Positions 3,901-11,167 are shown, numbered from the stretch's first letter. The stretch: 64,000 nucleotides of DNA from Negaprion brevirostris (GCA_030324005.1 JARDVH010000031.1:38609614-38673613); one strand, 5' to 3'. Notes: generated from the letters alone by a model not told the origin. Translations and numbers: made by a program.

Positions 3901-6900
3901 GAAGTCATTGGAAAAAATCAATTGGATAGAGTGAAAAACAAGCCGTTTATACACTATTTCCCATTTGTTCCCGAGACCAACTTTACCTCTGCTAAGTTCA
4001 TTGTTTTACATTAACTTGCTGCCTTTAAATATTTATATTTACTTTTAAAACTTTTTTTTTTGTCTCCAGTTCCTGCCAAGATTCATCTACCCAAACAACT
4101 GGAAGGCATGGGTGCAGTTCACGCTCTCCGTGGTGAAATAATAAGCATTAAAATTCCTTTCAGTGGCAGACCTGATCCAGTAATCACATGGCAGAAGGGT
4201 CAAGATCTTATTGATAATAATGGTCACTACCAAGTAATAGTAACAAGATCATTTACATCTCTTGTATTCCCCAATGGAGTTGACAGGAAAGATGCTGGCT
4301 TCTATGTTGTATGTGCCAAGAATCGATTTGGTATAGATCAACAAACAGTTGAATTGGATGTGGCTGATGTACCTGACATGCCACGAGGACTTCAAGTTAG
4401 TGACATTACACGTGATTCCGTTGTATTAACATGGAATCCTCCAGCTAATGATGGTGGAAGCAAAGTCATTAACTATGTCATTGAAAAATGTGCAACAACT
4501 GCAGAGATGTGGATTCGAGTTGCACAGTCACGTGACACTCATTACACTGTTGTGAATCTTTTCGGCAAGACCAGCTACCAGTTCCGTGTGATTGCTGAGA
4601 ACAAGTTTGGCCAGAGCCTGCCATCAGAGCCAACCGATCCTATAGTCACTAAAGAAGATAAGACAAGAGTTATGAACTACGATGAACAGGTTGATGAATC
4701 AATTGAAATTACCAAAAGCAAGGCTACCCATTCCACTATTAAGGAACTTCACAGTCGATACTCAATTGCTGAAGAGCTGGGACGTGGACAGTTTAGTATT
4801 GTTCATCGGTGTATTGAAAACACCAGTAAGAAAACATACATGGCGAAGTTTGTTAAAATAAAGGGTGCTGATCAGGTGCTGGTGAAGAAAGAGATTGAAA
4901 TTCTCAATATTGCGAGACACAAGAATATTCTTTGGCTACATGAATCATTTGAGAGCCTTGAAGAACTAGTCATGGTCTTTGAGTTCATTTCAGGCCTTGA
5001 CATCTTCGAGCGCATCAATACAACCAACTTTGAACTGAACGAAAGGGAAATTATTATCTACACCCGCCAGATCTGTGAGGCACTCGAGTTTCTACACAGT
5101 CAGAATGTTGGCCATTTTGACATCAAACCAGAGAATATAATCTACACCACAAGAAAGAGCTCTTTTCTTAAGATTGTTGAACTTGGACAGGCCAGACAAC
5201 TCAAACCTGGTGACAACATTAGAATCCAATTCACTGCTGCAGAGTATGCAGCACCTGAACTCCATCAACATGATGTGGTCAGTGCAGCTACTGACATGTG
5301 GTCAGTTGGTGCACTTGTGTATGTACTTCTTAGTGGTCTAAATCCATTTATTGCTGAAACAAACCAACAGGTTATTGAAAACATTATTAGAGCAGAATAC
5401 AACTTTGACGATGAAGCTTTTAAAGATATCACCACTGAAGCTCTAGACTTTATCGATCGCCTGTTGGTCAAAGAAAGGAAGGCTCGGATGACAGCTGCTG
5501 ATGCTCTTGAACATCCATGGTTGAAACAGAAGACAGAAAAAATGAGCACCAAAGTGATTAAGACTTTGAGACATAGAAGATACTATCAAACCCTTGTTAA
5601 GAAAGAATTAAATGTTGTTGTTTCTGTAGCTCGGATTTCTTCTGGTGGAGCTGTTAGAGCTCACAAGGGAGTTACAGTTGCCAAGGTTAAGATAGGTCCA
5701 ATTGAAATTGGACCACTTACTGGACAAGTAATGCACGCTTCTGCTGAAGAAGGTGGTCATGTTAGGTATTCCTGCAGGATAGAAAATTATGATCAATCTA
5801 CCGAAGTCACATGGTACTTTGGTGTCAGGCAACTGGAATGCAGTGATAAATATGAAATTACATACCAAGATGGTTTGGCAACAATGTATGTTAAAGACAT
5901 AAACAAGACAGATGATGGTACCTACAGATGCAAAGTGGTAAATGACTATGGTGAAGATAGCTCCTATGCAGAGCTGTTTGTGAATGGTGTCAGAGAAATG
6001 CGTAAATTCTATATGGAACGCACAGTGAAGAAAGTAAAACGTAAAGTGGATGCTATGAGACTCCTTGAAAGGCCACCAGAGTTTACATTGCCTCTGTATA
6101 AACGTTCTGCATATATTGGAGAAGATGTCAGATTTGGTGTCACTATAACAGTTCACCCTGAACCACGGGTAACCTGGTTGAAATCTGGACAAAAGATCAA
6201 ACCTGATGAAGATGACAAAAAATATACTTTTATTTCTGACAAAGGCCTCTATCAGCTGATCATCCACAGTGTAACAAAGGATGATGATGCTGAATACACC
6301 GTAGTAGCTCGCAATAGATATGGTGAGGACAGCTGCAAAGCCAAATTAACGGTATTACCTCACCCACCTGCAGCAGATACCACAATGAGACCCATGTTTA
6401 AACGTTTGTTGGCAAATGCAGAGTGCATGGAAGGCCAAAGCGTTCGTTTTGAATGTAGGGTGTCTGGCACACCATCTCCTGCTCTGAAATGGGAGAAAGA
6501 TGGACAGGCTTTGGCATTTGTTCCAAATATTGAATTTGTCCATGAAGGTTTGGACTACTATGTTTTGCACATAAGAGATACGTTACCAGAGGACTCTGGT
6601 GTTTACAGAATTACTGCTACCAACAGCGCTGGATCTGCGAGCTGCCAGGCCTATCTAAAGGTTGAACGCATGACCTACGTTAAGCGTCAATATGAGAGTG
6701 AGGAGGAACGACAGCGACATGCTGAGAAACAAATTAACAAAACAGTGAGAATGGCTGAAATTCTTGCAAATGTTGAAGCCGTTCCACTGACAGCCGTAGC
6801 AAAGGAAGCTCTGCGAGAAGCTGCAATAATGTACAAACCAGCTGTCAGCACCAAGAATGTCAAAGGTGAATATGAAATTTCAAAAGTAGAAAAACAAAAG

Positions 6901-9900
6901 GAAGAAAAGAGACTTCGTATGCCCTATGATATTCCAGAACCTCGTGTGCATGCAGCAAGTACAATTGAAGAGAATCAAGAGATCAAACAATTTGTTCCAT
7001 TATCTGACATGAAATGGTACAAGAAACTGAGAGACCAATATGAAATGCCAGCACCCATGGAGAGAATTGTAACAAAACGACCAAAACGAATCCGTCTGTC
7101 CAGATGGGAGCAGTTTTATGTCATGCCTTTGCCACGCTTTACTGATCAGTATAAGCCCAAATGGCGTATACCAAAAATGTCACAAGATGACCTTGAAACA
7201 GTTAGACCTGCTCGAAGGCGCACACCATCTCCTGAGTACGAAATATATTACAGACCAAGGAGGAGATCACTTTGTGATTTGTCAGATGATGATTTACTCC
7301 GCCCTGTTGACGAGTACCTTTCGATGAAGAGAGTAGAGGAAGAAAGATTGCGTCTTGAGGAGGAACTTGAATTAGGATTTTCTGCTTCACCTCCAAGGCA
7401 CAGCCCACCACGTTTTGAGTTATCAGCCCTTCAGCACAGACAGTTAGCTACAGCAAAAGAGGAGGAAACACATGTCAAATACCAAGGATACCACATTCCT
7501 TCCAAGTATGAAGCTGGCCCAAGCTTTATTGATCTCCGGCAGCGTCATGACAAAGCTATTTATAAGCCACCAAAACAAAAGCAAAGAATGATGGAAGACA
7601 GAGAAGATGATGAGTTGCTTCGACCAATTTCTACTGTCCAGAAATTATCCGCCTACCAAACAGAACTTGAGCATATGGAACGTGAGGAAAAGACAAGGAT
7701 CAAAAGTCGACGGGAAAGAGAGATTTTTGTGACAAAATCTGAAGAAGAACAACAACAACAAAGTTTTGAAGTTAAGGAATACGTTCGCAAAGAATCTCCT
7801 GAAGTCTCAAAGCTTCTTAGGAGAAGAAGATCGCTTTCCCCAACTTACATTGAATTGATGCGACCTGTATCTGAACTAATCAGAACTCGACCACGCCGCA
7901 CAGAACTTGAAAGCGAAGGCGTAGAAAGACGATCTCCCACACCAGAGAGAACACGTCCACGTTCACCAAGTCCAGTATCGCGAGAGAGCTCACTTTCACG
8001 TTTTGAAAGGACTGCCAGGTTTGACATCTTTTCACGCTATGAATCAATGAAATCTGCTCTAAAGTCTCATAAGACTTCTGAAGGAAAATATGAAGTTATT
8101 ACTCAACAGCCTTTCAGTCTTGACCATTGTCCACGTGTAACTTTGAGAATGCGTTCTCATCGCATCCCCTGTGGTCAAAATACCAGATTTACATTAAATG
8201 TTCTGTCCAAGCCAAGAGCTGAAATTAGTTGGTACCACAATGGTAGAGAAATTCAGGAGAGTGACAAGTACCACTTTACTGACATGAATGGTGTCCTAAC
8301 ACTAGAAATCCGGGATTGCCAAGCTGAAGATAGTGGAACCTATCGAGTTGTTAGTTCTAATTACAAAGGAGAGGCTTCTGACTATGCAACACTAGATATT
8401 ACGGGAGGTGACTATTTTACCTACCTGTCTCGCCGTAAAGATGAGGAGCAACCAAAATTACTTGTACCTGAACTGACGAGGACTGATTTTTATCAACTCT
8501 CTTCGTTTAAAGCAGCAACAGAAATTGAAGAAGTCAGTGAGATGAAAGAAACTACGGTAGAAGAATCAGAAGTAAGGGAATCCATCAGTTCTAAAGAAAG
8601 ATTAGCTTATGCATCCAAGCAAACTCTTCCAGCCAAAATAGTAACAAAACCACAGTCAGTCACAGTAGCAGAGGGAGAATCTGTTAGGTTTTCCTGTGGC
8701 ATTGACGGTGAGCCAACACCCACTGTGACATGGATGCATGCTGGGCGAAGAATTTCATCCTCCAAACGCCTGTTTATTATGACAACACAGTATAAATCTA
8801 CCTTTACAATTTCATCAGTCCAATCTTCTGATGAAGGAAGTTATACAGTGGTGGTAGAAAATTCTGAAGGCAAACAGGAAGCACAGTTTACTCTGACTAT
8901 CCGCAGAGCAGGAGCAAAAGAATCAGGTATTGTTGAGACCATGAGAACTAAGAGAGTCAAATCACCAGAACCCGCCACTTCTCTTCCAAGAGTTAAGTCA
9001 CCTCCAACTCTCAGAACACCTTCAGCAGAACGAGTAGAGATCCCTGCAAGTGCTCCACCCAAGATTTCTCAAGAATTGAAAGCTGAAGTTGCTGAAGATG
9101 GTACGGTAAAACTCACGTGCGCAGTTGAGAGCACAGCCCTGAATGTGAAAGAATTGACTTGGTTCAAAGATGGACGTAAAGTAAAGGAAAACAGTCACTA
9201 TAAACTGGAATATGCTGCTAATGGTGTCTATAATCTCAGTATCCATGGAATTAATGCAACTGATGAAGGAGAATACACTTGTGAAATCACTGGTGAAGGA
9301 GGCATTTCCAAAACCACTTTTTCCTTCGTTGGTCAAGTGTTCAAAAGCACTGTTGCTAAAGTGGCCAAAATAACTGAAGTTCAGAAAAAAGCTGCTAAAT
9401 CGTATGGAAAAACAGAAGTAGTTCAGGAACAAATTGTGAAAAAAGAACTTAAAGCGTCATCCACAGAAATTACAACCACGCGGGTGCAAATGACTGCTGT
9501 AGATGGCCAAAAGGCCATACTTAAGGCAAGCATACCAAATGCTTCTGATGTGAAATGGGTCTCAAATGGTTTGGAACTAATCAATTCAGAAGATTATCGA
9601 TATGGTGTATCTGGAAATGACCATACTTTAACCATCAAAAAGATCAGCTTTAGAGATGAAGGTACAATCACCTGTGAAGCAAAAACTGAGCACGGAAGAG
9701 TTAAATGTCAGTTTGATTTAACAATTCAGAAGAGACAATCAAATGCGCCGGCATTCATTGTGCAGCCCAAGTCCCAAAATGCTAATGAAAGACAAAGTGT
9801 GACATTTACTTGTGAAATATCAGGAGATCCTTCTCCAGAGGTTGAATGGATGAAAGACAATCATCCTGTGAGTACTTTATTAATTTATGTTTGCTATTCG

Positions 9901-11167
9901 TTTATGAGATTCTCCAAATCAAATTACTTACTGTGTTTATGACGAAAGGGCTTATGACGAAAGGGAACTTGTTTCATATTTCAGATTGCAATTTCAAGAA
10001 ATTTGAGAGTGAGTCGTTTGAAAAATAAATACACCCTGGAAATTCTGAGTGCAGCATTCTCTGACAGTGGAAAATATACAGTAACAGCAAAGAATTTCCA
10101 TGGGCAGTGTTCTGCAACAGCGTCTTTAATTGTACTAGGTATGCTATTGCCTTAAATTATTGCACATTTGCATTTTCTGTACATCTGATTAACATTGATT
10201 TTATTTTACCCTGAAGCTGAGTTTCTTCGGTATACTGTTGAGCAAAAGTCTGGCAAGTAATTGAATATTTTTAACATTAATCTTCATTTTTTATAATATA
10301 AAGTAGATGCAAATGATTCAATGTTTTATTTGGTCTATCAGCAAATAACTTGTGACACACTCAAGTAGGACACAGATTTTTATCTTCATTTAATGATTTT
10401 ACCTTTCCCGCACGTTGAACGTGAGGCGATTTATGCATCACATCTGTTTGCTATGCTCCACAGCTCTAATTGAAGAACCTTCTAAAATGGTAGTTCTGGA
10501 GACGGGTGCTTCTGCCAGCATGCAGGAACATTTCACTGCCAAGGCACAGGAACACTTCTCTTCCAAGGCAATGCAAATGACCAAACAAGAGGCCAGCAGC
10601 AGCATGACTGAAGTTAAATTTGCCAGCATGTCTTCAAGTAGCATGTCATCATTTAAAGAATCAAAATTATCAATGAGCTCCAGCTCTTTCATGGAGCATT
10701 CCAGTATGAGTCATCTAGAAGCAAGTACTGGCAAAATGATAACCGGCATTACTAAAGGTGATATTACCAAAACATTTTTAAAAATGACTTTTTCTATTAG
10801 TCGCATCCAGTTGTACCAACATACTGGAAAGAGAAACTAACCTGTTTACTGTATGTTTTTTTTTACAGGATCTTCTCCTAAAATTGAAGCTTTACCATCA
10901 GATATCACTATTGAGAAAGGAAAGGTTCTAACAGTTGCCTGTGCTTTCTCTGGTGATCCTATGCCTGAGGTAAAATGGTCACGTGGGGGAAGACCTCTTT
11001 CTGACGATGAGGATGGTGGCAGATTCCACATTGAAACAACAGATGATCTAACAACACTCATTATCACAGGTGTCAAAGAAAATGATGCAGGACGCTACAC
11101 TCTAAGACTCACAAATGAATTTGGATCGGATTCTGCCACTGTAAATATTAAAATCAGATCAGTATAA
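376..11167 (+). CDS. TTN: Titin, 3' portion (10 coding exons: 376-960, 1070-1375, 1532-1831, 2134-2709, 2793-3098, 3188-3781, 4070-9867, 9985-10138, 10464-10757, 10869-11167); gene continues upstream of the window
   Basis: Ig/Fn3 repeats, titin kinase, M-band Ig domains, C-terminus ...DSATVNIKIRSV*; all junctions GT..AG and frame-consistent. Confidence 0.98.
1070..1375 (+). CDS. TTN: TTN A-band exon (Fn3), 306 nt
   Basis: ttctag|ATCCA ... TTTG|gtaagt; PPEPPSNPPEILDVTKSSVSLCW...CKDPF. Confidence 0.93.
1532..1831 (+). CDS. TTN: TTN A-band exon (Fn3), 300 nt
   Basis: tcacag|ATAAA ... ACTT|gtatgt; KPSQPGEIEV...KTKLT. Confidence 0.92.
2134..2709 (+). CDS. TTN: TTN exon (two Ig domains), 576 nt
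   Basis: caacag|CTGGA ... CAAG|gtaatc; GEEPCVKQEI...CSVEIQ. Confidence 0.93.
2793..3098 (+). CDS. TTN: TTN exon (Fn3), 306 nt
   Basis: atgtag|ATAAA ... TTTG|gtaagt; KPAMPEGP...IKSPF. Confidence 0.93.
3188..3781 (+). CDS. TTN: TTN exon (Fn3 + Ig A168), 594 nt
   Basis: ttatag|AGAAA ... GACG|gtgtgt; KPGTPVKP...VSLDVD. Confidence 0.92.
4070..9867 (+). CDS. TTN: TTN giant M-band exon (A169-A170, kinase, M1-M6, M8, N-half of M9), 5798 nt
   Basis: ctccag|TTCCT ... CATCCT|gtgagt; uninterrupted ORF (4060..9942 in the track). Confidence 0.95.
4759..5523 (+). other. TTN: Titin (pseudo)kinase domain
   Basis: YSIAEELGRGQFSIV, YMAKFV, HFDIKPEN, ELGQ (DFG position), APE, DMWSVG, HPWL. Confidence 0.95.
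9985..10138 (+). CDS. TTN: TTN exon Mex4 (C-half of Ig M9), 154 nt
   Basis: tttcag|ATTGCA ... CTAG|gtatgc; IAISRNLRV...DSGKYTVTAKNFHGQCSATASLIVL. Confidence 0.93.
10464..10757 (+). CDS. TTN: TTN exon Mex5 (is7, Ser/Met-rich), 294 nt
   Basis: ccacag|CTCTA ... AAAG|gtgata; LIEEPSK...SSMTEVKFASMSSSSMSS. Confidence 0.88.
10869..11167 (+). CDS. TTN: TTN last exon Mex6 (Ig M10) to stop codon
   Basis: ttacag|GATCT; PKIEALPSDITIEKGKVLTVACAFSG...IRSV-TAA. Confidence 0.95.

Follow-up and report, generated by a model that had tools for sequence, protein, structure and literature searches.

The M-band region of titin in Negaprion brevirostris lacks Ig domain M7, probably through a deletion that occurred independently in other vertebrate lineages

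The 64,000 nt of Negaprion brevirostris DNA analysed here, which we refer to as the window (GCA_030324005.1 JARDVH010000031.1:38609614-38673613), include the 3'-terminal part of a vertebrate titin gene (TTN) on the + strand, and the titin encoded there has nine M-band Ig domains instead of ten, with M7 missing between M6 and M8. We consider it probable that M7 was an ancestral and dispensable domain that was removed together with both of its introns by one in-frame genomic deletion, and that the same happened independently in frogs, in the common ancestor of turtles, lizards and birds, and in some teleost copies.

The gene is identified by the arrangement of its product, in which Ig, Fn3 and kinase domains are followed by M-band I-set Ig domains with their unique insertions and by M10 as the last domain, as in vertebrate titin C-termini. 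Downstream of exons of 585, 306, 300, 576, 306 and 594 nt lies a coding exon of 5798 nt (4070-9867), which is bounded by AG and GT, open throughout and joined at its 3' donor in spliced contigs, and which encodes A169, A170, the kinase, M1-M6, a linker, M8 and the first half of M9. The domains M1 (5716-5985), M2 (6070-6360) and M3 (6391-6666) were assigned from translation, domain comparison and a domain tree, M4 (8128-8403) from the domain tree and from the elephant-shark primer 188F matching at 8322, and M5 (8629-8904) from its match to PDB 1NCT/1TNM (E 9e-37). The is4 linker (8905-9051) contains, by translation, few KSP motifs, whereas the a-type copies of teleosts contain dozens. The first half of M9 (9745-9867), delimited by the frame, by spliced contigs and by HMM comparison, ends at a phase-0 intron of 117 nt (9868-9984) seen in spliced contigs, and the second half is encoded by an exon of 154 nt equivalent to Mex4 (9985-10138; frame, spliced contigs and primer 193R at 10083). 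Then follow an exon of 294 nt for the Ser/Met-rich is7, equivalent to Mex5 (10464-10757), which is in frame and included in spliced contigs, and the last coding exon, equivalent to Mex6 (10869-11167; frame, spliced contigs and primer 194R at 11127), which encodes M10 and ends in a stop at 11165-11167. All these features lie on the + strand, the spliced frame from the 4070-9867 exon through the stop has zero internal stops, and all three predicted introns occur as GT..AG joints in spliced contigs. One contig of run X22 has a 24-nt in-frame insertion at 10521 in the is7 exon, which is an extra copy of a local repeat.

Compared with human titin, in which M1-M10 are spread over Mex1-Mex6 according to the accessible text of PMC6922384, the kinase, M1-M6, M8-M10, the is7 exon, the distribution of M9 over two exons and the order of these elements are all the same, but M7 is missing and a single exon takes the place of Mex1-Mex3. 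The exon at 4070-9867 corresponds to mammalian Mex1 plus Mex3 minus M7, and the introns that lie inside and after M7 among the six human M-line exons are absent from the window, which has four M-line exons, the first of them open in one piece. The preliminary description of this DNA had likewise read a single exon from A169 to the middle of M9, and splice sites, open frame and spliced contigs agree on it.

The absence of M7 between M6 and M8 was found by Pfam, by HMM and by AlphaFold alike. M6 (9052-9336) is recognized as I-set by Pfam (9052-9342), scores 125 bits with an M6 HMM and contains the match of primer 190R at 9271, while M8 (9475-9735) is recognized as I-set at 9478-9738, scores 126 bits with an M8 HMM and belongs to the M8 clade (100/99); these two HMMs served as controls for an M7 HMM built from eight M7 domains, which gives 1.3 bits on the linker. 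The linker comprises about 46-49 aa of non-Ig sequence (about 47 had been proposed), leaving no room for M7 since such a stretch cannot hold a 92-aa domain, and Pfam assigns no family to 9337-9486. An AlphaFold model of 9040-9744 (16-row alignment, mean pLDDT 75, pTM 0.49) contains only two Ig folds, followed in the case of M6 by a helix at residues 98-119 (22 residues) and then by a low-confidence coil at 119-145. The preliminary description had named an Ig domain within 9337-9477 as evidence that would speak against its reading, and none of the three approaches found one there; nor was a displaced M7 found elsewhere in the six frames of the 64-kb window, where the best M7 HMM matches reach at most 46 bits and all fall on other titin Ig domains. 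That the linker might hide an intron or a cryptic donor was also considered and rejected, there being no donor-like motif and no contig joint within it.

The linker itself appears to be of two parts. AlphaFold and the linker alignment place a predicted helix directly after M6, in the first ~21 aa of is5 (9331-9396), and the remainder (9397-9474, + strand) is predicted to be disordered (pLDDT <50), gives no Ig signal and is, from its alignment with is5 and is6 of bonefish and mammals, where M7 was putatively deleted. Every M6-bearing row of the linker alignment retains the ~21 residues that follow M6, whether M7 is present or not. Ig-helix linkers are known from myomesin, and M6 with its predicted helix may form a unit of this kind.

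Of the four runs, three have contigs that span the M6-M8 junction with no gap, and two of these three are spliced: X1 (8600-10738; unspliced, possibly from the source sample) has 0 differences, X2 (9001-9749; a spliced run of another study) has 1 difference, and X17 (8600-9867; spliced, with another organism label) has 24 substitutions and no gap, whereas X22 has no cover at 9296-9469 and counts neither way. X2 and X17 are taken as spliced from their exon-exon joints, contigs being the form of all this evidence, and within 9052-9867 the contigs show no splice joint, the three predicted introns being the only ones to appear. Furthermore, a sister-lineage protein with 76% identity has the same layout as the window. 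An assembly collapse at this junction, which the preliminary description had itself raised as a concern, is thus not borne out. The scaffold is indeed faulty elsewhere, and a collapse or mis-join could be suspected on that account, but three runs from three studies and under two organism labels, together with the layout of the sister-lineage protein, make the chance of such a fault at the M6-M8 junction negligible. The fault in question arose in scaffolding and lies 7 kb upstream of M6-M8, where ~110 nt (the end of the exon 1532-1831 and the start of its intron) stand on both sides of a 100-N gap at 1892-1991 (within 1780-2100).

The comparison with other vertebrates draws on 443 proteins gathered by three protein searches, three cluster look-ups and one representative search, a set that holds no named cartilaginous-fish, coelacanth, lungfish, gar, salamander, lamprey or monotreme M-band. 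One of the protein searches was confined to proteins of 3382-5000 aa, which excludes full-length titins (shark, coelacanth, gar and others), and its matches were largely hemicentins, obscurins and fragments of I-band titin, the region being present in 2 of the 120 matches listed, both teleost; the representative search, with is2, gave 20 matches of which one was informative (turtle P0433). M6 and M8 are both present in 42 of the 443 proteins, and M7 is absent from 36 of these and present in 6. The M7-less proteins are those of 15 named birds (one record being a gene model that skips the linker too), the painted turtle, a gecko, the frog Leptobrachium, an arowana model and 17 further frames, but many of these rows are close kin and the 36 therefore amount to about four or five lineages. 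The six with M7 are from langur, hamster (two records), two rodent-cluster records and the bonefish Albula (P0012), the last with the full M5-M6-M7-M8-M9-M10 series. The arowana model (P0013), in which M7 falls in an 83-aa gap, is not counted as a firm loss, since the record is a gene model, already spliced, whose linker is odd.

The titins of birds, turtle, gecko and frog (P0009-P0011, P0353-P0364, P0433, P0014, P0008) resemble that of the window in having M6, a short linker, M8 and no M7, and unspliced frames of the frog and sauropsid group appear to show the same fused exon, but the length of the linker and the retained part of is6 differ from those of the window and the lineages are not one clade. 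Six frames (P0001-P0006), which the tree and their cluster names group with frogs, with squamates or with the window, are unbroken from A169 to mid-M9 and then pass into unrelated sequence just as the window frame does, which suggests that they are genomic and carry the same exon fusion. Since frogs and sauropsids generally share the absence of M7, it is neither a peculiarity of cartilaginous fishes nor the primitive state.

In teleosts there are two copy types in the region. The a-type has M5-M6 followed by an intron and continues in four spliced records to is7 or M10, while the b-type lacks M6 and usually has M7-M8-M9, M7 and/or M8 being also lost in some percomorphs and a few copies retaining merely the first residues of M7. 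The region is in this way partitioned between the copies (P0029-P0070, P0088-P0093, P0243-P0307), the a-type having M5-M6-is7-M10 and the b-type M5-M7-M8-M9-M10. Among the stored proteins, M6 occurs without M8 in 80 (23 of which end within the first half of M7) and M7 without M6 in 40. Taken alone, the a-type frames that stop at the intron behind M6 are no proof that M7 is absent, and the eight a-type rows scored as M7-less in the 46-row tree described below were so scored from the spliced P0048, P0066, P0070 and P0225 together with the accessible part of PMC6922384, whose Fig. 1 legend gives zebrafish (A5X6X5) and Atlantic salmon titin without M7, M8 and M9. These two titins are like that of the window in having fewer than ten M-band Ig domains with M7 among the missing, but in them three domains are gone from one of two copies, the b-type supplying M7-M9 without M6, whereas in the window only M7 is gone and cartilaginous fishes have, according to the available text of PMC12241362, a single titin gene.

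The preliminary description had left it open whether M7 is a bony-vertebrate duplication of an M9-like unit or was deleted in this lineage, and it is the second of these that is supported by orthologous M7 domains in hagfish, teleosts and mammals. In the hagfish protein P0015 an Ig domain stands between M5 and M8 and is followed by is6, M8 and M9. Its best single-domain PDB match is 3PUC with 92 bits, multi-domain chains with alignments shown reaching at most 41 bits per domain, and M7 of bonefish likewise matches 3PUC with 96 bits against at most 42 bits for multi-domain chains with alignments shown; 3PUC is human M7 (Table 1 in the available portion of PMC6922384). In a domain tree of M1-M10 (59 rows, 92 columns), in which each domain class is a starred clade, the M7 domains of hagfish, five teleosts and two mammals form one starred clade (96/95), so that the hagfish and teleost domains both group with mammalian M7 and have human M7 as their best match. 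In 10 of 10 unspliced frames (five mammal-type and five teleost b-type) the intron in the middle of M7 comes five residues beyond the C-strand Trp, a position read from protein read-through in these mammal-type and teleost frames, with a Val at the break that fits a GT donor. Taken together, the hagfish orthologue, which comes from a single gene model in which is2-M4 and M6 are missing too, and the common intron position argue that M7 is older than the split between hagfish and jawed vertebrates and that one intron position has been kept from teleosts to mammals. The absence of M6 between M5 and M7 in the hagfish model might reflect an addition of M6 in jawed vertebrates or an annotation gap, and is not trusted because is2-M4 have been dropped from the model as well.

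These observations are in poor agreement with the idea that bony vertebrates gained M7 when an M9-like unit was duplicated together with its introns, in which case the window would retain a primitive nine-domain state. Such an origin might seem attractive given that a mid-domain intron splits both M7 and M9, but the intron of M9 comes six residues beyond the C-strand Trp, in 5 of 5 frames as well as in the window, one codon off that of M7 rather than at an identical position. Mean identity is 27% between M7 and M9 (27.0% in Table 3 of PMC6922384, as far as accessible), as against 59% within M7 and 32% between M7 and M3, and the Ig-domain tree that the preliminary description had proposed as a means of asking whether M7 groups with M9 places M7 with M3 when left free, although unstarred (87/90 and 88/84). 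M7 and M9 as sisters are on the other hand not rejected (AU p=0.27), and for that reason the 92 columns do not settle the deep kinship of M7. With an orthologous M7 in hagfish, however, and with losses in frogs and sauropsids remaining necessary in any case, we find the duplication very hard to credit.

As to the number of losses, a gene tree of the flanking sequence from the kinase to M5 (942 columns) unites mammals and sauropsids (95/95) and places the window outside tetrapods and teleosts, at a base that is not resolved. All M7-less non-teleosts as a single clade are rejected (AU p=0.010), while frogs and sauropsids as one clade are not (AU p=0.057). The 46-row tree requires at least six changes of M7 state, four of them forced by starred branches, but these are unordered parsimony counts that are blind to gain versus loss and under which an early loss with later regains fits about as well as three losses. 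When regain of an orthologous domain with the same intron is disallowed, three losses outside teleosts become necessary, namely in the window lineage, in frogs and in sauropsids.

Between common anchors the linker measures 56 aa in the window, 61 in the sister lineage, 58-59 in frogs and 75-76 in sauropsids, and among these only the sauropsids have kept the block that opens mammalian is6. Such differences, seen at the level of protein rather than of DNA breakpoints, fit separate deletions, although later indels after a shared event could also produce them. The whole M6-M8 segment, taken between the same anchors, is 70 aa in the window versus 257 aa in langur, which makes it shorter by 187 aa than that of langur and by 117 aa than that of bonefish, the 117 aa corresponding to M7 plus about 25 linker residues. 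The preliminary description had called human is6 long, and this holds for mammals but not as a general standard, since the length is a mammalian trait due to an extra repeat of ~52 aa (P0340, P0007) that is absent in bonefish, other teleosts, hagfish and sauropsids. Rodent is5 furthermore contains short tandem repeats. A literature search for a calpain-3 cleavage site in is6 found no paper, and such a site plays no part in our reading.

Some indication of when M7 was lost comes from the elephant shark. All six of the A/M-band primers tested from the supplement of PMC12241362 map in order on the window with 1-3 mismatches each, in a comparison confined to the window, and their targets there are A170 (primer 183), M1 (185), M4 (188), M6 (190), M9 (193) and M10 (194). 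The numbers 185-194 therefore imply ten M-band domains in elephant-shark connectin, two of them between M6 (190) and M9 (193). If the authors numbered the chimaera's own domains, as the accessible text indicates that they did for the I-band, there is a hint that the chimaera keeps M7 and that M7 was lost after chimaeras and sharks had separated, but the numbering could also have been carried over from human. The same text ascribes to elephant-shark connectin an 'almost identical domain structure' to human, with 61% for the M-band, and as far as it is available mentions no missing domain.

In the deletion that we favour, the left end would lie in is5 after the post-M6 helix and the right end in is6 past the Mex3 acceptor, so that both breakpoints would fall in low-complexity coding linker and is5-like sequence would be joined to the 3' part of is6-like sequence at 9397-9474. 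Both introns would be gone, and Mex1 and Mex3 fused, because the introns presumably lay inside the deleted stretch. M7 would on this account be an ancestral, putatively dispensable domain and possibly an inert spacer bead, whose loss would shorten the path to M8-M10 while sparing the reported binding sites in is2, is4, M9-is7 and M10. One Ig bead measures about 4 nm, and losing one bead with its linker is predicted to shorten the reach of titin across the M-band. Titin extends about 60 nm into the opposite half-sarcomere, according to the available part of PMC2121001. In the accessible text of PMC6922384, ligands are given for the M3-M4 and M5-M6 linkers, for M9-M10 and for M10, whereas M7 has none and is described as monomeric with buried cysteines; the variant table of that paper covers M1, M3, M4, M5 and M10 with no entry for M7. 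Tolerance of M7 loss is plausible, the support from ligands and variants being absence of evidence from one paper.

A different route to the same product would be recombination of the gene with a reverse-transcribed transcript that skipped M7, in which case the same splice route would have given the same deletion in each lineage. Intron loss of this kind is commonest at the 3' ends of genes, which is where the region lies, and it would fit that the M7-less lineages share nearly the same stretch of ~21 aa behind M6 and that the donor of teleost a-type copies, which splices M6 to is7, is found at about that point. The shared left side is however explained by selection on the post-M6 helix, the right-hand junctions vary among lineages, the adjoining 3' introns (the one in M9 and those on both sides of is7) are still present, and neither mammals nor teleost b-type copies have an intron before M7, which means that skipping would need a cryptic donor. 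We regard the transcript-templated route as unlikely. It could also be imagined that a single ancient loss gave rise to an M7-less titin copy, whether ohnologue or tandem paralogue, and that the copies were later differentially kept or converted. This would derive the patchy pattern from one deletion, and the duplicated titins of teleosts do partition these very domains, but the flank from the kinase to M5 follows the species tree, with an M7-less clade rejected as stated above, and the available text of PMC12198301 has a single titin gene retained in jawed vertebrates. Local conversion between copies is possible, yet hidden paralogy as an explanation of the whole pattern seems to us distinctly improbable, and separate genomic deletions of M7 are what we continue to prefer.

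A broader proposition, which we advance tentatively and with more doubt than confidence, is that M7 is a deletion hotspot that was cut at least three times in single-copy titins (window lineage, frogs and sauropsids) and again in teleost copies, always with the post-M6 helix spared, mammals being exceptional among the sampled tetrapods in that M7 has stayed and is6 has grown longer. On this view the span from M6 to M8 would determine the reach of the obscurin- and calpain-3-binding end of titin across the M-band, and M-band geometry should therefore track the state of M7 across vertebrates if the hotspot reading is true.

That the number of M-band domains varies in teleosts is already in print, but we found no report in the open literature of a loss of M7 only, in birds, turtles, lizards, frogs or cartilaginous fish, although subscription papers on chicken or zebrafish connectin may mention it, as may figures and supplements. 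The accessible portions of PMC12198301, PMC7023976, PMC3859903, PMC9575118, PMC8607394 and bioRxiv 2025.08.04.668337 make no mention of it, and the 'M7 domain' in the available text of PMC8607394 is a myosin label, irrelevant to M7 of titin. The ten-domain M-band is indeed given as the vertebrate standard in the available text of PMC3859903 and PMC12241362.

The M7-less state is nonetheless visible in public bird protein records, and the sampled records suggest that a nine-domain M-band operates in the hearts and muscles of frogs, turtles, lizards, birds and the window lineage. Mammalian domain numbers may accordingly not map onto chicken or frog titin, which calls for caution. If the losses are independent, they amount to repeated natural knock-outs of one titin domain, and M7 would be the sole M-band bead that single-gene vertebrates can spare. 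For human variants in Mex1-Mex3, in-frame and missense changes in M7 are predicted to be milder than those in M8-M10, and the variation between lineages furthermore offers a comparative handle on how the C-terminus of titin is laid across the M-band. Downstream of titin, at 12900-48000 of the window, many N gaps are adjoined by fragments that appear to resemble reverse-transcriptase (LINE-type) reading frames.
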